Source: an uncultured Pseudomonadota bacterium (GTDB lineage Bacteria; Pseudomonadota; Alphaproteobacteria; RUG11792). Taken from it: a DNA stretch of 62,979 nucleotides. Positions 4,643-56,365 of this stretch are shown here, in pieces. The notes beneath the pieces are model-generated. The model had not been told where the DNA came from. It ran no database searches and saw only the letters and a list, made by a program, of their open reading frames with translations. The stretch's first letter is position 1. Each line of letters begins with the position of its first letter. The stretch spans positions 1 through 62,979 of the forward strand of contig CADBOF010000011.1 of the NCBI GenBank assembly GCA_902796345.1. Direction: 5' to 3'. Position numbers and translations under genes: made by a program.

Positions 4643-6628
4643 TTATGTCGAATTATGTTTTAAAATATGACTAACAAAATCTGTTTGGCGTTCGCAGCCA
4701 AATTTTTCATTATAATAAAACATATTTCTAAAAACGTGTTTAATATATAAACGAGTTTCTTTTATTGGGATAAGTTCTATTGTTTCAAGTATTGATAAAT
4801 CGTTTAAATTTTGTATACTTTTTCTGTATTTTGATAAATTACCTTCTCCGGCATTATATGCATAAAGAACGTATACAAAATTATTATTATATTTGTTAAT
4901 AAGGCGGTTTAATAGGTTTGACCCAAGTAATAAATTGTCATAAGCATTGTACAGCTTACGTTTTTTGTACTGAATTCCAATTAATTTAGCTTCTGCTTCT
5001 GCTGTTTTAGGCATTAGTTGCATCAAACCTATCGCTCCAGTTGAACTTTTAGCACGACGTTTAAAATTACTTTCTTGCTTAATAAGAGAATGTACCGCAC
5101 TTATAAAACAATTGTTTGAATTTACATTCCTAACTGGAATTAATTTGTTGTCATCAAGCTCTTTGTATTCAATATTTGTTATATAATGTTGTTTATCGTA
5201 AAACTTATCAATTAATGTGTTGATTTCATTATTTGATTTGGCTAATTCAATTAATAGAACTTCTTCATATGGATCTTCTATATCATCAATTAATGTATTG
5301 TAAAAATATTTACGATATTTCTCATTACTTTCATTATTTTTTGTTTCAATCAAGACTTGCACGAGTTCCCGATTATAAAATTTTTTTGCTAATGCAGACG
5401 AAGTATCGTTTACCGAACCTCGTTCTAGAGATATGCCGTTAACTGACACATATGTGTCAGAAATCTGTTTTATGCGAATATCTGCTAAATAACCGTAAAA
5501 TGTTGAAAAATATTCAGATGCTTTTCTATACCATTCCATAGCTGCCATTACATCTTGCTGTTCTCTACGCATTTCTGCAAGCCAGAATGCATTTTTACTT
5601 TTTCTAATACTTGCTGTTGAATATTTGTGCGCATTTTCAAAATGCGTCTGTGCTTGGGTGAATTTTTTTAAAAATCTATACGAAATATAACCGAGTAACC
5701 ATTCAATACGGGCTTTATTTTCATCATCAATATTTTTTGGATATTTTTGTGCAACATTGTATGCAAGTTCTGGTTTCCCGGCTCGTAACATGTTATACGC
5801 AATATATCTGCGTTTTTCAAAATATTGTTTATAAACAAAAAAGCCATTCTCTCCATAATCAGTTATATTCATAATTCTTGCTACATCTAAATCTTCCCCT
5901 TTATTTATTAATTTTTCAATATATTTGTAACGTTCAGAAGCATCAAATAACATGCTATTATCAAAAATTATATCTTTATTTATTTCGTCTGTAATGTACT
6001 GTAGTACATCATTGTCTGATACGATATTTTTCATTGTTATCAATTGCTTCGTATCATTTTGAGATACTAAACGTTTTGCTCGTTGTGCATCTTCAACAAC
6101 ACTTATATAATTTCCATATTTTTCTTTGAATTGAATGACGTATTCTGGCTCAAGATTTTGAAATATGTATGTCTGTTTAATATATTTTTCTGCTGTTTTT
6201 CTATCTCTACGCAATAAAATATCAATATATGCTTCTATGCCTGCTTTTGTTGTTGGTGGATATCTTTTAAACCAAAGAATTAACATATCATCATTAATTG
6301 TTTGAGATTTAGCAATGTTTCGTTCTGCGTCTTTTACGGATTGTCTAAATAACGGCCAATGTGGATTATCGTAAAAAAAATCAAAAACTTTTTCAGTATC
6401 TGACATATTATTAATTACTTCTTTCCATTTGTTATATTTTTCGTTTATTGATGTGTAAGTTTTTAAATTTTGATTGTTGGTAACGTTTTTGGCGTTTTTA
6501 CTGTAAAAATTTTCAACAATTTCATCACCGTATGCTGTTGTTTCAATCAAGAAAAGTGGAATACTATTCCAGACATAGCCGAACGTTGTACAACACGTTG
6601 CAAAAATAATAATTTTTTTAGAAATCAT
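4643..6628 (-). CDS. slt: Soluble lytic murein transglycosylase (Slt70 family)
   Basis: 661 aa with a signal/anchor N-terminus and a long helical superhelix-type region. C-terminal SLT domain motifs: ALIKQESNF, GAIGLMQLMPKTA, AYNAGEGN. Confidence 0.8.
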   Translation of the reverse strand: MISKKIIIFATCCTTFGYVWNSIPLFLIETTAYGDEIVENFYSKNAKNVTNNQNLKTYTSINEKYNKWKEVINNMSDTEKVFDFFYDNPHWPLFRQSVKDAERNIAKSQTINDDMLILWFKRYPPTTKAGIEAYIDILLRRDRKTAEKYIKQTYIFQNLEPEYVIQFKEKYGNYISVVEDAQRAKRLVSQNDTKQLITMKNIVSDNDVLQYITDEINKDIIFDNSMLFDASERYKYIEKLINKGEDLDVARIMNITDYGENGFFVYKQYFEKRRYIAYNMLRAGKPELAYNVAQKYPKNIDDENKARIEWLLGYISYRFLKKFTQAQTHFENAHKYSTASIRKSKNAFWLAEMRREQQDVMAAMEWYRKASEYFSTFYGYLADIRIKQISDTYVSVNGISLERGSVNDTSSALAKKFYNRELVQVLIETKNNESNEKYRKYFYNTLIDDIEDPYEEVLLIELAKSNNEINTLIDKFYDKQHYITNIEYKELDDNKLIPVRNVNSNNCFISAVHSLIKQESNFKRRAKSSTGAIGLMQLMPKTAEAEAKLIGIQYKKRKLYNAYDNLLLGSNLLNRLINKYNNNFVYVLYAYNAGEGNLSKYRKSIQNLNDLSILETIELIPIKETRLYIKHVFRNMFYYNEKFGCERQTDFVSHILKHNST

Positions 6629-7014
6629 GTAAATACTGTGGTTTTGTTTGTAATCAATTAAGCTTTTCTTAATTTAAAATATCATCACTTATTCATTAAT
6701 TTTTGATTAAATTTTTGCATTATTTTTACTATATATACAAAAACGCTAAACATGCATTAAACGATACATAATTATTTAATTTGTCGCTACAGCTAAAACA
6801 CGACCTCATATTTTGAATAGTTTCGACATTGTTTTTTAAAAAAAATTACTCTGCAATGTAACTAGAAGAATGTATAACAATCGATTTTACGACAGTAAGA
6901 ATTTTTATACGTTTAATATATTTTTTATTAAATCATTGTTTTAATTTTTATAAATGCTTTTCTACAAAATTAAACAACTCGTATATTGATAAAAATGCTT
7001 GTCGTTCTTTTTAT

Positions 7015-14597: not shown

Positions 14598-15821
14598 ATG
14601 AAGAAAGAGTTGGTAGTTATTGATCTCGGTACAAGTACTGTATGTGCAACTATTGCAAAATATATTGGCGGAAAAAATAAAAAAATAAAAATACTTGGGT
14701 TAGGATATCGTGCGACAAAAGGGTTAGATTATAGTCGCGTTATATCTCTTTCAGATGTCGAGAATTCAATTCTTGATGCAATAACTATTGCATCAGATTT
14801 AGCTCAAAAACGAGTAAAATCTGTTATTGTTTCTTTGCCACCATGGGCTGTGAACTCTCAAATTGTTGAGATTTCACGTGATATTGACAATACTCCAATT
14901 GACAACTCTGTAATTCGCTCAATGGCAAATGAATGTAGTGTCAATAATGAAACAATTATTCACATAATTCCAGTAAACTATTTTTTGGACGACGTTTCAG
15001 AAATAAAAAACCCAATTGGAATGACGTGTAAAAAATTGTCAGCTATTTTTAATATTTTATCAGTCCAGAAAAATTTACTCAATAGTCTGAAAAATTGTTT
15101 TACAAAAAATAATATCGAAGTATCTGCATTTGTGTCTTCTGCTTTTATGTCAGCAATTGCAGTCACACAACAAAACAATTCATGTATCACTGTTTTAGAC
15201 ATAGGTAGCTCGTGTACGTCTATATCATGCATTAATGATGGGGTAATGGTATATTCTGAACATATTCCAGTTGGGAGTAATAGCATTACTCGCGATATAG
15301 CTTTCGTATTAAAAATTTCTGAAATTGAAGCAGAGAGACTTAAAACCGTTTATGGATTGTCAAACGATATTTCACAAGATCAAGTCCTTATAACAACAAA
15401 AAATCAATACGATGAACAGAATATCCAATCTGTGCCATCTGAAACACTTAGTGCGATAATAACAGCGAGGATCGATGATATATTTGATATTATCAAAAAA
15501 CACATATTGGATAATGGTGTAACCGAAGAATATTACGAAAATATATTTATTACAGGAGGTGGTAGTCGTTTAACTGGGCTTAACGAATATATAAATTTAA
15601 AAAGTTTTATCGCAGGTTCATCTCTTTCAGTAAAGTGTCCGAAAGATTTTTCAGAAGAACGCGATTACTCTGGAACGGCATCGTTTTCAGCCTCCGCTGG
15701 CATGTTGCTGTACGGTTTTAAGTTAATCCCCGACATTGATATCGTATCTTATACAGTTAAGGATGCGGATAAAATATCATTATTTGATAAGCTTAAATCG
15801 TTGTTTAAAGGAAAACTTTAA
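14598..15821 (+). CDS. ftsA: Cell division protein FtsA
   Basis: Actin-like fold motifs VVIDLGTSTV, VLDIGSSCTSIS, ITGGGSRLTGL. C-terminal amphipathic helix SLFDKLKSLFKGKL. Start moved to ATG 14598, because the ORF-track TTG at 14484 adds 38 non-conserved aa. Confidence 0.85.
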   Translation: MKKELVVIDLGTSTVCATIAKYIGGKNKKIKILGLGYRATKGLDYSRVISLSDVENSILDAITIASDLAQKRVKSVIVSLPPWAVNSQIVEISRDIDNTPIDNSVIRSMANECSVNNETIIHIIPVNYFLDDVSEIKNPIGMTCKKLSAIFNILSVQKNLLNSLKNCFTKNNIEVSAFVSSAFMSAIAVTQQNNSCITVLDIGSSCTSISCINDGVMVYSEHIPVGSNSITRDIAFVLKISEIEAERLKTVYGLSNDISQDQVLITTKNQYDEQNIQSVPSETLSAIITARIDDIFDIIKKHILDNGVTEEYYENIFITGGGSRLTGLNEYINLKSFIAGSSLSVKCPKDFSEERDYSGTASFSASAGMLLYGFKLIPDIDIVSYTVKDADKISLFDKLKSLFKGKL

Positions 15822-50449: not shown

Positions 50450-50866
50450 TCACTTCAAACTGTTTGCTACGCTCAAAACAAGCGTTGAAATTAACATCGC
50501 GGGCACAAACGGAATTATTTTATTTTTTCTCAAAATTGATGCAAAAATACCAATACAGCCAATTAGAATTAACAAAATTGGCAAGTCTCTGTTATCCAAA
50601 AATGGGGAAATTGATATACTGATAAAATAGTCTGCAGTTCCACAAACGTTTTTTTTTAAAAATATTTTTGAAAATAATCCGATACATAAAACAACAACAA
50701 AAAGAAAAATACTACATTCTTTGCGAGTGAGATAATAAAAAAAACAACTAAGAATAAAAACAAGTAAAGGAAATACACTGACAGAGTGCGTTCGCCAATC
50801 CTGAATACACAACACTCCACCTGACACAAGGACATTAAGAATAATGCAACATGAAATGAAGAGCAC
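50450..50866 (-). CDS. Small polytopic membrane protein, A24 (prepilin peptidase, CpaA/TadV-like) family candidate
   Basis: 138 aa with about 5 TM segments. IQDWRTHSVSV resembles the first catalytic-Asp motif (D-x-R-T/x-x-x-I/V). GTADYF resembles G-x-G-D-x-K. IIPFVPAMLIS resembles the conserved C-terminal IPFGPFL. The GTG start overlaps the ffh stop (TAGTG). Confidence 0.4.
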   Translation of the reverse strand: MLFISCCIILNVLVSGGVLCIQDWRTHSVSVFPLLVFILSCFFYYLTRKECSIFLFVVVLCIGLFSKIFLKKNVCGTADYFISISISPFLDNRDLPILLILIGCIGIFASILRKNKIIPFVPAMLISTLVLSVANSLK

Positions 50867-52176
50867 TATTTTCGAAAATTGTGAAGCATGTTTTGCATAA
50901 AATTACCATTTGTCATTTTTATCATTACCGTTCTTATTTGTTCATACTGTTGAACAAGCTTATTTACTGCAGATACGTCCTGACCACAACCTTCGGCTAT
51001 TCTCTTACGTCGTGATGCGTTCAAAATTGTTGGTTGTTTACGCTCCTTGGGAGTCATTGATCTTATTATAGCGATCTGTTTTGATATCAATTTATCAGAT
51101 ATTCCACCTTCATTTAGCTTTGCTTGTACTTGTTTTATCCCCGGTATAAAACGCATTATGCCTTTCATGCCTCCTATTTTTTCAATTTGTTTTAGATATG
51201 ATTCCATCCCATTAAGGTCAAACTCACGTCCTACTTTTACATTTGCAACACTATCAGCGACGTTTGCATCGATCGCTTTTTCAACCAAACTTATTACGTC
51301 TCCTTGATCTAAAATTCGTGACGCTATTCGTTCTGGATGAAATACTTCAATATCAGATATTTTTTCGCCTGTTCCAATAAATTTTATTTGACAATTTGTG
51401 ACAGCCTTTGCTGAAAGTGCAACACCACCGCGTGCATCTCCATCAACACGCGTAAGAACGAGCCCAGTAAGATTTAAATTTTCGTTAAAACTTTTTGCAA
51501 TATTCAGTGCACTTTGCCCCGTCATTATGTCAATTGCAAGAAATATATCTTTTGGATTGATTACGGATTTTATTTTTAAAAGCTCTTCCATCATTTTGTT
51601 GTCCAAATATGTGCGACCAGCTGTATCGTATATGACAACATCGTACTTATCTGAAAAATTATGTGCTTTGTGTGCTATTTCAATAGGCTTATCACTATCA
51701 GAAAAATTTTCAAAAAAATCTATGTTGTTAGACGTTGCTAATATTTGCAACTGTTCAATTGCTGCGGGTCTGTAAGTATCTAAAGATACGAGTAAGCATT
51801 TTTTATTAAATTTTTTTTGTAAAAGATTTGCAAACTTTGCTGATGTTGTAGTTTTTCCGGAGCCTTGCAATCCAACAAACATAACAGATTTATAATTAAA
51901 ATCGTTGTTATCATTGCCCAGGAATTTCACTAGTTCATCATATACAACTTTTATTATGGTTTGTTCGGGGGTAACACTTTTTATAACATTGTGATCTTTA
52001 AGTTTTAATTTAATGTCTTCTATGAAATTTTTTACAACGTTTAAGGCAACATCTGCTTCTAATAAAGATATACGAATTTCACGCACAGTTGAATTTATAT
52101 CATTATCAGTCAGAATCCCTTTATTTCGAATTTTTCCAAATACTGATAAAAGTTTTTTCGACAGACCGTCAAACAT
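50866..52176 (-). CDS. ffh: Signal recognition particle protein Ffh
   Basis: MFDGLSKKL..., GLQGSGKTTT, DTAGR, TRVDGDARGG, and a Met-rich M domain. Confidence 0.95.
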   Translation of the reverse strand: MFDGLSKKLLSVFGKIRNKGILTDNDINSTVREIRISLLEADVALNVVKNFIEDIKLKLKDHNVIKSVTPEQTIIKVVYDELVKFLGNDNNDFNYKSVMFVGLQGSGKTTTSAKFANLLQKKFNKKCLLVSLDTYRPAAIEQLQILATSNNIDFFENFSDSDKPIEIAHKAHNFSDKYDVVIYDTAGRTYLDNKMMEELLKIKSVINPKDIFLAIDIMTGQSALNIAKSFNENLNLTGLVLTRVDGDARGGVALSAKAVTNCQIKFIGTGEKISDIEVFHPERIASRILDQGDVISLVEKAIDANVADSVANVKVGREFDLNGMESYLKQIEKIGGMKGIMRFIPGIKQVQAKLNEGGISDKLISKQIAIIRSMTPKERKQPTILNASRRKRIAEGCGQDVSAVNKLVQQYEQIRTVMIKMTNGNFMQNMLHNFRK

Positions 52177-52297: not shown

Positions 52298-52726
52298 ATG
52301 AATTTTTGTAAAAAAATAATAGTATTATTTGCGTTCGGAGTAATAAGCACTTGCAATGTGTCGGCTAGCCAAAACACCGATATTAACGAGATAATTGATA
52401 CAAAGTCAGAATTAAGCACTCTCAATATTGACGAATTAATAAAGGAAAAATCAAACAACAAATTTAGCAACTGCATAGTAAATAATAATGGACATGGTAG
52501 AAATAGCGAATTTCCGAATAAAAATTACAAATCTAAAAAAATTAATATTACGTTTTTTGGCGATTCGATTGGTGGCTTTGAAAATTGGGCAGATGTAAAA
52601 GACTTTGGGAAAGAGTTTTTTCAAAATTTGTTTATAGCCTTTAAAGCATTTCACAGTTGTGATATCTCGGATCATATTAACATCAGTGATGAGTTGTCTT
52701 GTTGCGATATTTATCCTATAGATTAA
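52298..52726 (+). CDS. Hypothetical exported protein
   Basis: Signal peptide MNFCKKIIVLFAFGVISTCNVSA. No recognisable domain. The 3' end overlaps the convergent 109-aa gene by 4 nt. Confidence 0.45.
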   Translation: MNFCKKIIVLFAFGVISTCNVSASQNTDINEIIDTKSELSTLNIDELIKEKSNNKFSNCIVNNNGHGRNSEFPNKNYKSKKINITFFGDSIGGFENWADVKDFGKEFFQNLFIAFKAFHSCDISDHINISDELSCCDIYPID

Positions 52727-53052
52727 GAGAGTAATGACAAAGTTATTGAACTGCCATTGTTTATGGTAAGGTTAACGCATTGTTTCGAAACAAAATTTAT
52801 TGAAAAGTCTTCATATTGTCCTACAGAACTATACGGTTTATCATTAATCCAGACAGTCCAATTCTTAGGGGTTATAAACAAAATTCCAGATAGTTTATAA
52901 GTAGTTTTTGCGCTTTTCCCTTTCGTTTTTTCTGTTGCTGTTTGATTTAGTATGGCTTTGCTTTCTTTATCTGAAAAGAAATACGAAGTTTCTGCCATAG
53001 CGATTGAAATTGATAGTAACAGAGCAATGTTTATTTTGTATACAATGTACAT
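52723..53052 (-). CDS. Hypothetical exported protein, PilP / GspC-HR-domain-like candidate
   Basis: Signal peptide ...LLLSISIAMA|ETS. YKLSGILFITPKNWTVWINDKPY...VNLTINNGSSITLSL follows the L-x-G-I/V ... V-x-L ... NG ... L-x-L pattern of PilP/GspC HR domains. 22-nt overlap with the upstream gene. Confidence 0.4.
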   Translation of the reverse strand: MYIVYKINIALLLSISIAMAETSYFFSDKESKAILNQTATEKTKGKSAKTTYKLSGILFITPKNWTVWINDKPYSSVGQYEDFSINFVSKQCVNLTINNGSSITLSLLS

Positions 53053-53561
53053 AAAAGAACAGTTTCCAAAATGTGACGACCGTTATTAAGGCGTTTCTTA
53101 TTTATTTTAACAGCAATTGTTCTAACAAAACCTTCATATTGATCAATTTTATTGATAAAATCAAATATGAAGTTGTCATGTACAAAAGTACTATTAATTT
53201 TAATAGGAGTTTCGCGAATATTTGAAAGTTTATTAATTTCTCCGACATTAATATCAAGTATTTTGGCTTTCGTTGTATCAATGGATTGTTCAATATATTG
53301 TATAAATTGTTCACTATTTGAATTTAATTTGTGCTTTTGCACAATTATGTTATTTTTTAGAGACATTACTTTATCATAAGTGGTTTGTAACGGTATTAGT
53401 TCTAATTCTTTATTTCTATAAATATGTTGAACATATGCGTTCATTGCCAATATTGTAATTGGTAAAATAGTATATTTTATATTAAAAACGGATATTATAT
53501 TTTTAAAAGAAAAATTTTTCAGCAGCGAATTGTCTTTAATATGATGAATATTGTCAAGCAT
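53031..53561 (-). CDS. Hypothetical bitopic membrane protein with PilN/PilO/GspM-like topology
   Basis: 176 aa. A short cytoplasmic N-terminus, one TM (YTILPITILAMNAYV), a predicted coiled coil and a C-terminal domain of about 100 aa. 8-nt overlap with the upstream gene. Confidence 0.4.
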   Translation of the reverse strand: MLDNIHHIKDNSLLKNFSFKNIISVFNIKYTILPITILAMNAYVQHIYRNKELELIPLQTTYDKVMSLKNNIIVQKHKLNSNSEQFIQYIEQSIDTTKAKILDINVGEINKLSNIRETPIKINSTFVHDNFIFDFINKIDQYEGFVRTIAVKINKKRLNNGRHILETVLLCTLYTK

Positions 53562-54945
53562 CTACAGTAACACTTTCGTTAACATAATAGCCGTCAGTGT
53601 AATTTTCAGAAAAATCATCTTCAGATAAGTCGGTTTCCTCAGTGTCGTCATTTTCATCACTATGAATATTATTGAGTTCGTCAACGGCATCATCACTGTT
53701 TGTGATTAAATTATGTTCGCTGTAATCGGCTACCGGATTACCATCAATATCTGTATTGTTATCGTTATCTACAGGTATATTATCGTTTTTGTTTGCTTCT
53801 TCTGTGACAGATACTTTATTCCCACTTTCACAATACATTATTATGTTTTGAAGTTTCCCTTTTTTGTTTTGGGTATATTGTTTTATAGCGTCTTCATAAT
53901 TCGGCAGATTTAAAAGATTTCTAGAATGCAGTTCCTGCCAAGTATCGATATCTTTTGTAATCTGTGAATCATTTATTGCGTTTTTTATATTATTTATATG
54001 TTCGTTTATTTCTTTTATTTTATAGGCATTAGTAATACTATTTGAAAATAGTACGCCAGAAAATACTAAACATGCAATCTTAAATGTACTGTTTTCAATT
54101 CGTCTGCATGACTTAATATTAAACATGGTAGACATTACCTTCATCTTTAGTTCTGAATAAGCCGAAAGATAGTCAACAACGCTATCTCCGAACTCATATA
54201 TAACTAAATTATTCATATCTACGTTAGTAACGTTTTTAATATAGTTTAGAGTATTATGTACTTCATCGTTCTTATTTTTATTTTCTAAAGAGACACTTCT
54301 ATTGTATACAACATATCCATCATCGGTTAGTATTATATGCAAATAGTCCATGTAATCTATAACAAGTAATGTCGGCGTTAATACATTATGCTTACAACGA
54401 TTAAAAAAGGTTGACACAACCCAGAAAGGAAATACAGAAGTAGAAAATATATTCAATTTATATGAATTGTTTAGTAAAAGCTTTGTAATATCATTCGATA
54501 TATCAGCAGTACAAATTCCGTATGTGAGTTTTTTATTAAATCGAATACTTTTGTCATTAGAAACTCTTCCGTAAAAGACAGTATTACAATGACTATCATT
54601 TAATGCGTGTTTTGCAACACCATTTATGTTTCCAATTCCGGATATTTTAGTTAAAAATAATTTGCAAGCCATTGATCTATGAAAAAGCACGAGCTCTATC
54701 GGTAAATTAAGCCCCAGCAACAAATCAATTAATTTTTCAGAATTCTGTTCTGTATTGGAAATTAATCTACCTTTATCATCAAATAGCAAACGATTTATTA
54801 GTAAACCTGATTTGAAATGTTCGAGTTTCGATTTATTTTCGAACAAAAAAACGCGAATAAACTCATCGTGTTTTTTGTTGAACAATCCAACGCATTTGAC
54901 CATTCGCCGTACTCCCATAGGATGGCTTACCCATATGATGTGCAA
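53554..54945 (-). CDS. Hypothetical protein with a GspL / PilM-PilN-fusion-like architecture (degenerate actin-like cytoplasmic domain, TM, coiled coil, acidic tail)
   Basis: 463 aa. KLNIFSTSVFPFWVV and TLLVIDYMDYLHIILTDDGYVVYNRSVSL resemble the PilM/FtsA/GspL second-subdomain strands. TM FKIACLVFSGVLFSNSITNAY. Coiled coil KIKEINEHINNIKNAI. C-terminal D/E/N-rich tail of about 90 aa. Confidence 0.4.
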   Translation of the reverse strand: MHIIWVSHPMGVRRMVKCVGLFNKKHDEFIRVFLFENKSKLEHFKSGLLINRLLFDDKGRLISNTEQNSEKLIDLLLGLNLPIELVLFHRSMACKLFLTKISGIGNINGVAKHALNDSHCNTVFYGRVSNDKSIRFNKKLTYGICTADISNDITKLLLNNSYKLNIFSTSVFPFWVVSTFFNRCKHNVLTPTLLVIDYMDYLHIILTDDGYVVYNRSVSLENKNKNDEVHNTLNYIKNVTNVDMNNLVIYEFGDSVVDYLSAYSELKMKVMSTMFNIKSCRRIENSTFKIACLVFSGVLFSNSITNAYKIKEINEHINNIKNAINDSQITKDIDTWQELHSRNLLNLPNYEDAIKQYTQNKKGKLQNIIMYCESGNKVSVTEEANKNDNIPVDNDNNTDIDGNPVADYSEHNLITNSDDAVDELNNIHSDENDDTEETDLSEDDFSENYTDGYYVNESVTVDA

Positions 54946-54990: not shown

Positions 54991-55593
54991 TCATAAAACG
55001 GTGTAACTATTAATATCTAATAATTTATATATATGTATACCTCCCATTGATTCAAACTTCTTTTTTATTATAGTTAACGGCTCTTCATAATATTTTTTAA
55101 GTTCATGTTCGGGAATTCCTCTTTTTGCTCTATACCATTCAATTTTATCTTCTACGGTTATATATTTATCAATACCGCTCATTTTATCGCAAAGCTGAAT
55201 TAATTCTATATATTTATCATATTCAAGTTTGGATAGGATTTGCCATATAGCGCTAATTTCATTTTCGTCGCCTTTGCAAAAATGTGTTACATGGACGATG
55301 TTTTTAACCGGAAACGGATGGGCAATACAAACTTTTGCAATTTGACTGTTCGTATCTTTTAAAAGTTCATACCCAATCCTCGGATGCCTGTAAACACGAT
55401 TTGGGTCACTGTCACGAATACCTTCAAATTTCCCTATATCATGAAGCTCTCCACACAAAAATGCTAGCTCCGCGTTTAGTCCGCATTTTTCCGCAATTAA
55501 TTTTGCTGCATTAGCTACGAGCATTGAGTGATTATACGTTTTCGCATTTCGGTCTCGTTCCAAAAAATTATTTGGTAAATATTTTTCAATCAT
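54991..55593 (-). CDS. HD-domain (HDIG-type) metal-dependent phosphohydrolase
   Basis: H...LHDIGKF...H motifs (HSMLVANAA..., GELHDIGKFEG, RHPRIGYELL). Start at ATG 55593, 7 nt after the mlaF stop. The ORF-track start is 55638. Confidence 0.7.
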   Translation of the reverse strand: MIEKYLPNNFLERDRNAKTYNHSMLVANAAKLIAEKCGLNAELAFLCGELHDIGKFEGIRDSDPNRVYRHPRIGYELLKDTNSQIAKVCIAHPFPVKNIVHVTHFCKGDENEISAIWQILSKLEYDKYIELIQLCDKMSGIDKYITVEDKIEWYRAKRGIPEHELKKYYEEPLTIIKKKFESMGGIHIYKLLDINSYTVL

Positions 55594-55600
55594 AATATAT

Positions 55601-56365
55601 TTATGCAGTAAAAGGTCCAACGAGAGAGCCAGTAACAAATTGTTTTACATAAGGGTTATCTGTTGTCCACAAGTCTTTATTATCACCCTCCCATATTATT
55701 TTGCCTCCGAATAATAACCCCACTCTGTCACTTATATGTTTTAAGCTATTAATATCATGCGTAATCGATAAAGCGGATATTCCCATTTCTTTAGTAAATT
55801 TAACTATCAACTCGTTAATCATACCGCTTGTAATAGGATCCAATCCAGTTGTTGGCTCATCAAAGAATATTATATCTGGGCTTGTGGCAATAGCGCGCGC
55901 AAGGGCTACACGTTTTTGCATCCCTCCCGAAAGCTCGGACGGATATTTCTCTAAAACATCATCTTTTAAATTAACATCGTGAAGTTTTTCAATTGCTATT
56001 TCTCTCGCTTGTTTTTTTGAGAATCCAAAACCATACACAAGACCGAATCCTATGTTATCTGCAACGGTTAAACTATCAAATAATGCTCCACCTTGAAACA
56101 AAATTCCACATTTAAGCATTAATTTGTCTCTGTCCTTTTGGTTAAGATTTGTCAATTCATTACCATTTATTTTGACGCTTCCAGATGTTGGCTTTAAAAT
56201 TCCTATAATACTTTTTAGTAATACTGATTTCCCAGAACCAGAACCACCGATTATTACATACGACGTTCCCTTTTTAAGTTTTAACGAAACACCTGTAATA
56301 ACTTTATTTGATCCAAATGATTTTGTTAAATTGTTAACTTCTATTACGTACATAAAACCCCTCAA
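55601..56365 (-). CDS. mlaF: ABC transporter ATP-binding protein, MlaF-like
   Basis: Walker A GGSGSGKS, signature LSGGMQKRVALARA, Walker B IIFFDEP. It follows the MlaE-like permease with a 4-nt overlap. Confidence 0.8.
   Translation of the reverse strand: MRGFMYVIEVNNLTKSFGSNKVITGVSLKLKKGTSYVIIGGSGSGKSVLLKSIIGILKPTSGSVKINGNELTNLNQKDRDKLMLKCGILFQGGALFDSLTVADNIGFGLVYGFGFSKKQAREIAIEKLHDVNLKDDVLEKYPSELSGGMQKRVALARAIATSPDIIFFDEPTTGLDPITSGMINELIVKFTKEMGISALSITHDINSLKHISDRVGLLFGGKIIWEGDNKDLWTTDNPYVKQFVTGSLVGPFTA

Follow-up and report, generated by a model that had tools for sequence, protein, structure and literature searches.

In the literature on EpsL, the GspL protein in type II secretion systems (T2SS) is laid out as an actin-like domain with subdomain 1A, an SHS2-like insert and subdomain 2A, without subdomain 2B or Gly-rich loops, followed by a transmembrane (TM) helix and a periplasmic domain. 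GspL is regarded as PilM fused to PilN. PilM is an orthologue of cytoplasmic GspL (PMC10128026), and GspC, GspL and GspM form a complex whose structure is conserved despite low sequence similarity (PMC11981180). Components of type IV pili (T4P) and of the T2SS are patchy in Rickettsiales, rumen metagenome-assembled genomes (MAGs) included (PMC10847448; bioRxiv 10.1101/479196), and a ‘core’ T2SS set has been reported in Deianiraea. In the mitochondrial T2SS the assembly-platform subunits are missing or too diverged to detect (PMC10128026). Here we describe three overlapping minus-strand genes (the trio, encoding proteins 1, 2 and 3) in a 62,979-nucleotide (nt) stretch of DNA from an uncultured Pseudomonadota bacterium (contig CADBOF010000011.1, assembly GCA_902796345.1), the whole of which we call the window. 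The trio probably encodes the inner-membrane assembly platform, in highly diverged form, of a type IV filament machine, be it a T2SS or a type IVa-like pilus. Such a platform had been proposed from the letters and the open reading frames (ORFs) of the window, without database searches (the sequence-only reading). The three ORFs are exactly where that reading placed them (Table 1), with overlaps of 8 nt between the genes for proteins 1 and 2 and of 22 nt between those for proteins 2 and 3.

Protein 1 carries the structural argument. The sequence-only reading gave it 463 amino acids (aa); an ORF of that length exists (53554-54945) but opens at TTG. Translation almost certainly begins at the ATG at 54903, which yields 449 aa, because GGGAG lies 8 nt upstream of this ATG, all orthologues start with this very Met and gene callers make the same choice. 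AlphaFold2 (AF2) gave a predicted local distance difference test score (pLDDT) of 32 with a three-sequence alignment and a usable model with a 35-sequence family alignment (mean pLDDT 77, 206 residues at ≥90, values >90 over most of residues 10–310). The N-terminal domain of this model is actin-like, with two βββαβα(β) RNase-H-like subdomains, the first of which holds a β-α-β-β insert (79–133). There is no 2B subdomain; about five residues separate strand 197–205 from helix 211–225 at the 2B insertion site. The Gly-rich phosphate and adenosine loops are absent throughout the family alignment, where the phosphate-loop positions keep the acidic residues (FD/FE and E/D) and hold no Gly.

A Foldseek search of the Protein Data Bank (PDB) with this model returned Pseudomonas aeruginosa PilM first (E 5e-8), within an overall top range of 5e-8 to 1e-4. 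The PilM matches (5eoy_B, 5eou_B, 5eq6_A, 2ych_A and 3jc8_Ma) span E 5e-8 to 6e-6. P. aeruginosa PilM is followed by FtsA, the Bacteroides actin-like protein BT_3980, the PilM proteins of Thermus thermophilus and Myxococcus xanthus, and cytoplasmic GspL/EpsL/PulL (4pht_Y, 1w97 and 5tkw; E 2e-6 to 1e-4). The cytoplasmic GspL targets give the best target-normalised TM-scores (0.47–0.54) and the lowest root-mean-square deviations (5–6 Å). Generic ASKHA enzymes rank below PilM, FtsA and GspL.

The actin-like domain leads into a long helix that contains the predicted TM segment. In the window copy this segment is moderately hydrophobic, with a Kyte–Doolittle value of ∼1.3 (calculated by hand) that falls under the 1.4 cut-off. 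Beyond it, the predicted periplasmic elements are helices 314–327 and 336–345 and strands 353–359 and 363–368 (pLDDT 66–81), together about half of the periplasmic ferredoxin-like domain of PilN or GspL. W322 and an LQN motif are conserved here, and the periplasmic part has weak profile similarity to the TM/coiled-coil region of PilO (P 0.029). The protein ends in an acidic tail (49% D+E+N, 1% K+R) of 78 aa, shorter than the roughly 90 aa first estimated. The tail is confined to the lineage of the window and the related loci L001 and L005, and is absent from the 51%-identical homologue P0003 and from all distant members. The model, the Foldseek matches and the family alignment thus bear out the proposals of an actin-like PilM/GspL/FtsA fold that has lost its glycine loops and of a GspL-like layout, equivalently a PilM–PilN fusion, with a TM helix and a periplasmic extension. 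We regard the predicted fold and architecture as supported by these data.

The second line of evidence is the conservation of the trio. Only two relatives of protein 1 turned up among 5.8 billion protein clusters in a word-indexed search; an exhaustive profile search through 1.84 billion representatives recovered 33, counted as representatives at the 50% identity level; most are 350–410 aa long and cover profile positions 1–365. Three genes in the same order, mostly overlapping or abutting, were found in L001 and L005 (449, 176 and 109 aa for proteins 1, 2 and 3), L006 (385, 190 and ∼120 aa), L007 (375, 172 and 133 aa), L008/9 (358, 173 and 199 aa), L011/12 (372, 172 and 124 aa), L013 (410, 181 and 133 aa), L014 (400, 170 and 124 aa), L017 (370, 180 and 110 aa) and L020 (368, 146 and 85 aa), and the trio is partial in L016 and L019. 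The sequence-only reading had named beforehand conservation in relatives as an observation on which it would depend, and the conservation is strong: the order is kept in every relative examined, in about 12 lineages and down to 17% identity in protein 1. The flanking genes are housekeeping genes, unrelated to the trio, and differ from lineage to lineage. Since the order is kept while the flanks change, this goes beyond chance, and the trio is conserved as a module in its own right, not through synteny of the region. Several motifs of protein 1 persist despite 17% identity, namely NTVFY, WPxW, YR and the periplasmic W322.

All named homologues of the trio are ‘hypothetical protein’ entries, and the MAGs they come from are labelled Holosporales bacterium or Alphaproteobacteria bacterium. 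The two GTDB-species genomes that carry it are the rumen MAGs RUG12940 (GCA_902784055.1) and RUG14087 (GCA_902795615.1), both listed among the genomes of a phylogenomic study on Rickettsiales. Other carriers are the assemblies to which MBR1944401.1, MBR1479786.1, MDR0695281.1, MDR3224321.1, MDR0640638.1 and GHT88792.1 belong. The window itself is AT-rich (GC ∼29–37%), and its housekeeping genes are typical of alphaproteobacteria (MucR/Ros, a CckA-like kinase, FtsA, MlaD, GyrA/B and Ffh). The host is most likely a reduced, AT-rich, gut-associated alphaproteobacterial symbiont. Just downstream of its trio, RUG14087 carries a large terminase gene of phage or gene-transfer-agent type (L006 12979-14283, minus strand), beside pal and dnaJ.

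The sequence-only reading took protein 2 for a PilN, PilO or GspM. Its bitopic layout fits: a basic N-terminus on the cytoplasmic side and a TM segment at residues ∼22–48 are followed by a helical or coiled-coil stretch, after which comes a C-terminal domain (∼95 aa) whose H128-D motif is invariant. Family members have 140–190 aa, truncated calls included (140 aa in L019, 146 aa in L020), and the gene always directly follows that of protein 1. Protein 2 had no match in Pfam, NCBIfam or the PDB sequences. Reference sequences for PilO were taken from PDB alignment printouts (2RJZ, 5UVR and 3JC8), from Myxococcales homologues and from 80 pilMNOPQ metagenome loci, the last of which also supplied PilN and PilP; the homologue search for PilO returned near-identical Myxococcales sequences only and added little depth. 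In hhalign the protein 2 family gave the same collinear alignment with PilO every time, running from the coiled coil to the C-terminus over 132 columns and placing the invariant H-D on Y-H-D of PilO and the terminal Y-T on T-Y-R of PilO. The family alignment scored 15.1 against a two-sequence PilO template (P 0.15), 21.2 against a six-sequence profile (P 0.019, shuffles 0/150) and 23.9 against a 19-sequence profile (P 0.008, shuffles 0/60), with z 5–9 against shuffles for the largest profile. The globular domain alone scored 17.5 (P 0.023; 0/120 column shuffles, 4/120 block shuffles). As a control, PilN against PilO scored 26.3 (P 0.004, shuffles 0/60). The same family alignment showed no similarity to Escherichia coli GspM. 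The signal to PilO appears to be about as strong as the method yields for true distant members, though it is not robust, and on balance it leans positive. We therefore treat protein 2 as a candidate PilO/GspM equivalent with moderate, alignment-dependent profile support (P 0.008 to 0.14).

Protein 3, always the third gene of the trio, has a signal-peptide-like N-terminus, which agrees with the exported PilP or GspC HR-type protein proposed by the sequence-only reading. The signal is followed by an S-Y/F-F-x-x-x-E-S-x-x-I-L motif, a lysine-rich linker and a domain of ∼55 aa with the pattern Y-K-L-S-G-I...W-T-V-W-I-N...G-Q...F-S-I..V...L-T, called β-rich from a crude β-propensity profile. The family alignment has 15 invariant positions. 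The window protein carries a signal of the A-M-A↓E type, no lipobox Cys and no extra C-terminal domain; a Cys near the end of the signal occurs in the L006 ortholog only (Y-A-T-C). By eye, the hydrophobic pattern resembles that of the PilP/GspC HR domains of 2lc4, 4av2, 3jc8, 6hcg and E. coli GspC, and short hhalign stretches against HR fall in the expected register, both profiles being shallow. A PDB search for GspC-HR sequences with the E. coli protein as bait was swamped by designed β-propellers. Taken as a whole, the proposed assembly subcomplex is solid for protein 1 and for the conservation of the trio and moderate for protein 2, whereas protein 3 is an unproven PilP/GspC-HR candidate, named on its position, architecture and pattern.

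A type IV filament machine needs further components, and two genes near the trio bear on them. A well-supported T2SSF (PilC/GspF) gene lies 3 kb from the L013 trio (5678-6844; E 3e-37, two repeats). It is solitary, standing between small secreted ORFs and recG, from which we conclude that type IV filament components occur in the clade and are scattered as single genes. The small ORFs beside it were considered as pilins and rejected. In the window, the A24-like gene that the sequence-only reading had placed about 1.9 kb from the trio does end 1857 nt from it, but its PF01478 score is below the curated cut-off: the match covers model positions 8–103 of 104, yet reaches 22.7 bits against the 26.5 required (E 1.4e-4), and the L005 orthologue reaches 14.6 bits (E 0.046). 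The putative catalytic residues D23 and D79 are conserved in the L005 orthologue, and hhalign places G-T-A-D79-Y-F on the G-Y-G-D-F-K motif of E. coli GspO (P 0.05). No ATPase, platform, secretin or pilin gene lies within the window, as the sequence-only reading had noted.

Several findings weigh against the assembly-platform assignment. None of the three proteins matched Pfam or NCBIfam with HMMER, whether as single sequences, as all family members or as consensus sequences, so that the check suggested with the sequence-only reading came out negative throughout; the T2SS GspL models of both collections matched neither protein 1, nor 26 of its family members, nor the consensus. Family profiles of all three proteins run against the PDB sequences gave chance matches only (a recombinase, Dbp5 and others). 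FtsA fits the protein 1 model almost as well as PilM does. When the protein 2 family was re-aligned, the PilO signal dropped to P 0.09–0.14 (12 members against the six-sequence profile: 15.7, P 0.14, shuffles 2–4/100; against the 19-sequence profile: 17.3, P 0.09, shuffles 2/60). Protein 3 against the PilP or combined HR profile (hhalign; local, global and domain-restricted) gave P 0.1–0.5, not above shuffles. Neither the window nor ∼175 kb of related loci holds an ATPase, pilin or secretin gene, and a scan of the same sequence for prepilin-leader motifs found none, with E. coli GspG/H/I/J as a positive control. A certain type IV filament gene was found within 10 kb of the trio in one of about 12 lineages, which is about what chance would give for scattered genes. 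Finally, several of the trio-carrying MAGs are labelled Holosporales by NCBI, and a review of Holosporales mentions neither pili nor a T2SS. The reach of the sequence searches can be gauged from known members: by phmmer, E. coli GspM (K-12 gsp operon, L015) misses Vibrio cholerae EpsM in the PDB. As this pair is missed and PilN reaches PilO at P 0.004 only, negative sequence searches say little on membership.

The alternative that survives best is that the trio is an evolutionary remnant of the platform that outlived the ATPase, pilins and secretin and was recruited as a stand-alone envelope scaffold that assembles no filament, for example by tethering the inner membrane either to the periplasm or to some other machine. 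The module is genomically an orphan in every lineage, with 11 of about 12 contexts showing no partner inside ±10 kb, and the prepilin scan was empty; the halved periplasmic domain of protein 1, the absence from protein 3 of both the PilP lipid anchor and the TM segment and PDZ domain of GspC, and the novel acidic tail of the window lineage would all suit a scaffold. Against this, the T2SSF gene of L013 and the A24-like peptidase, with both Asp residues, near the trio suggest that the rest of the system persists. Reduced symbiont genomes usually scatter multi-component systems, the rvh type IV secretion system being an example, and only a small part of each genome is visible here. We consider a remnant unlikely. 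The bolder form of this idea, in which the trio is a self-sufficient, filament-independent envelope module, derived from GspL/PilMN–PilO–PilP and co-opted for a new function in reduced alphaproteobacterial gut symbionts after the ATPase, pilins and secretin were lost, seems to us quite unlikely.

Alternatively, the trio could be a lineage-specific system of a new kind that reuses the actin-like fold and is homologous to known proteins at the level of the ASKHA superfamily only. None of the three proteins has a sequence-level tie to a known family, and the TM-scores of protein 1 to PilM and GspL are modest (0.36–0.54). However, the nearest structures belong to the PilM/FtsA/GspL clade with its SHS2-type insert and not to generic ASKHA enzymes, the three-gene architecture fits the known subcomplex point by point, and bona fide members are equally divergent, as the EpsM and PilN–PilO comparisons above illustrate. 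This makes a new kind of system very unlikely.

Elsewhere in the window lies a gene for a canonical FtsA (PF14450, 2e-21, and SHS2_FTSA), so protein 1 is not the FtsA of the cell; PF11104 is likewise matched by this FtsA and not by protein 1. That protein 1 is nevertheless a membrane-anchored division or elongation protein of the FtsA/MreB type, with proteins 2 and 3 as divisome-type partners unrelated to type IV filaments, is highly improbable: FtsA stands second and recurs throughout the top 30 Foldseek matches at E-values like those of PilM, and the trio sits among housekeeping genes, but the FtsA already present is easily recognised by Pfam, FtsA is an ATP binder with a 2B subdomain and a terminal amphipathic helix instead of a TM helix and periplasmic domain, neither 2B nor the Gly loops are present in protein 1, an actin-like domain joined to a TM helix and a periplasmic domain and followed by a small bitopic gene is the signature of GspL–GspM or PilMN–PilO, and protein 2 leans towards PilO.

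Returning to an assembly platform as the favoured explanation, we infer the roles of proteins 2 and 3, the interactions and the partner genes of this genome from described complexes, taking PilN–PilO–PilP–PilQ and XpsCLM as models (PMC10128026; PMC11981180). Protein 1 would play the part of GspL, its nucleotide-free actin-like domain docking the N-terminal domain of an assembly ATPase by analogy with EpsL–EpsE and PilM–PilB. Protein 2, as the PilO/GspM equivalent, would be the partner of the TM helix and short periplasmic domain of protein 1. Protein 3 would act as PilP or GspC-HR, with the S-F-F...E-S motif attaching it to the periplasmic dimer of proteins 1 and 2 and the β-domain contacting the N0 domain of a secretin. 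The overlapping stop and start codons would couple translation of the three genes and so match the amounts of their products. The ATPase, platform protein, pilins, secretin and peptidase would be scattered elsewhere in the genome.

The result is one of annotation and evolution, which fills an annotation gap and proposes no new mechanism. The trio genes are invisible to Pfam and NCBIfam and stand as ‘hypothetical’ in database records; surveys of T4P/T2SS completeness in Rickettsiales- or Holosporales-like symbionts would therefore miss the platform and could under-call functional systems. The structural assignment of protein 1 and the three family profiles offer a handle for re-annotation, which in turn lets one ask whether a functional pilus or secretion machine for attachment to the host has been retained in reduced symbionts. 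The trio also illustrates how far GspL/M/C-type proteins can diverge, and this bears on the absent subunits of minimal and mitochondrial T2SS. If the family indeed represents the ‘missing’ GspC/L/M-type platform in minimal T2SS-like systems, its profiles could offer a means of searching for the undetected platform subunits of the mitochondrial T2SS.

The neighbourhood of the trio in the window is as the sequence-only reading had described: pssA-recF-gyrB was confirmed by eye, and mlaE, mlaF and an HD gene (Table 1) were confirmed as well. mlaEF lies upstream of the trio and mlaD stands separately. A link of the trio to the Mla system was considered and rejected, given that mlaD is elsewhere in the window and that the linkage to mlaEF is gone in L006–L020. 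In the window, L001, L005 and also L006 (9140-9892), whose other flanks all differ, the HD/HDOD-domain gene sits directly upstream of the trio; as this linkage does not extend to distant lineages, the gene was rejected as a member of the module. The L006 copy carries an internal repeat insertion of ∼40 aa (KASELKEFEHKVSEHPGFEHEMSELKEFECKASEPKRFEHKVS) and is otherwise near-identical to a copy in L004 (230-862) that lacks the insertion. The ffh (SRP54) gene adjoins the trio downstream in the window, in L001 and in L005, and upstream in the distant L007 (15-1100), an adjacency that is recurrent and not universal. A 142-aa ORF with a signal-peptide-like N-terminus converges with the protein 3 gene and slightly overlaps its end; L001 and L005 have a spacer of only ∼185 nt in its place, and the ORF may be either a lineage-specific small secreted protein or spurious.

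Table 1. Positions of the trio, of the segments of protein 1 and of other features in the window.
Feature	Position	Strand	Remarks
Protein 1 gene, 449 aa	53554..54903	(-)	GspL-like / PilM–PilN-fusion-like bitopic protein; ORF runs on to TTG at 54945
Actin-like (ASKHA) domain, residues ~10–260	54124..54876	(-)	Predicted by AF2 and Foldseek; cytoplasmic
TM helix F274–Y294	54022..54084	(-)	Within continuous helix 263–312 (AF2); hydrophobic in family consensus
Periplasmic part, residues 295–370	53794..54021	(-)	Helix extension, two short helices, β-hairpin
Acidic disordered tail, residues 372–449, 78 aa	53557..53790	(-)	pLDDT <50
Protein 2 gene, 176 aa	53031..53561	(-)	Candidate PilO/GspM equivalent
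Protein 3 gene, 109 aa	52723..53052	(-)	Candidate PilP / GspC-HR equivalent
HD/HDOD-domain gene	54991-55638	(-)	Directly upstream of the trio
142-aa ORF	52298-52726	(+)	Convergent with protein 3 gene
ffh (SRP54)	50866-52176		
A24-like polytopic protein, 138 aa	50450..50866	(-)	Immediately downstream of ffh; tentatively associated with the trio
Cys-rich protein, 322 aa	31355-32323	(-)	
Secreted coiled-coil-rich protein	26147-27793	(+)	
Secreted coiled-coil-rich protein	25368-26066	(+)	
tRNA	25189-25260		Rfam
mlaD	20545-20994		
Canonical ftsA	14598-15821		

A few features farther from the trio were also recorded. Rfam on the whole window gave the tRNA as the sole match above gathering score and no known RNA element in the trio region. 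One 322-aa protein begins with a metallothionein-like stretch very rich in Cys (CKCGSDCNCRDNNKDKCENQNTCKCTENCTCKNN...), continues with a TM segment and ends in a domain resembling DsbA/thioredoxin. Two adjacent genes encode secreted proteins rich in coiled coils; in the larger (548 aa) the C-terminal half is acidic and contains short tandem repeats (DLSATDLSATDLSDGDLL). Both are candidate surface or effector proteins.

Set beside the known systems, protein 1 shares with FtsA an actin-like fold with an SHS2-type insert, but has a TM helix and a periplasmic domain in place of an amphipathic C-terminal helix, is without 2B and nucleotide loops, lies outside any dcw context and matches no FtsA model in Pfam. 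Protein 3 resembles PilP (PF04351) and the HR domain of GspC (PF11356) in being small, exported, encoded right after a PilO-like gene and built from a linker and a β-rich domain. It differs from PilP, a lipoprotein, in that most family members have no lipobox, and from GspC in having neither its TM segment nor its PDZ or coiled-coil domain. Protein 2 matches PilO (PF04350) and GspM (PF04612, PF10741) in size (∼175 aa), in its TM segment with the N-terminus inside, in the helical stretch and in the C-terminal domain of ∼95 aa.

The order of the trio, an actin-like bitopic protein, a bitopic protein and a small exported one, is that of pilM-N-O-P and also of gspL-M. It is likewise the order of mshI-J-K of the MSHA pilus, where MshI is a PilM–PilN fusion. 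Unlike the PilM-N-O-P and MSHA loci, the trio is not followed by an adjacent secretin gene (pilQ or mshL). PilM structures lead the Foldseek list of protein 1 and share its actin-like fold. However, PilM is a separate, soluble, ATP-binding protein with a 2B subdomain that clamps the N-terminus of PilN, whereas in protein 1 the domain is joined covalently to a TM helix, is ∼100 aa shorter and is without Gly-rich loops. From GspL, protein 1 differs in a periplasmic part reduced to helix–helix–hairpin, in the lack of a surrounding gsp operon and in the 78-aa acidic tail of the window lineage. It nevertheless has the essentials of the GspL plan: a cytoplasmic actin-like domain of ∼250 aa without 2B or nucleotide loops, one TM helix, a periplasmic C-terminal region and, directly following its gene, a gene for a small bitopic partner, as gspM follows gspL.

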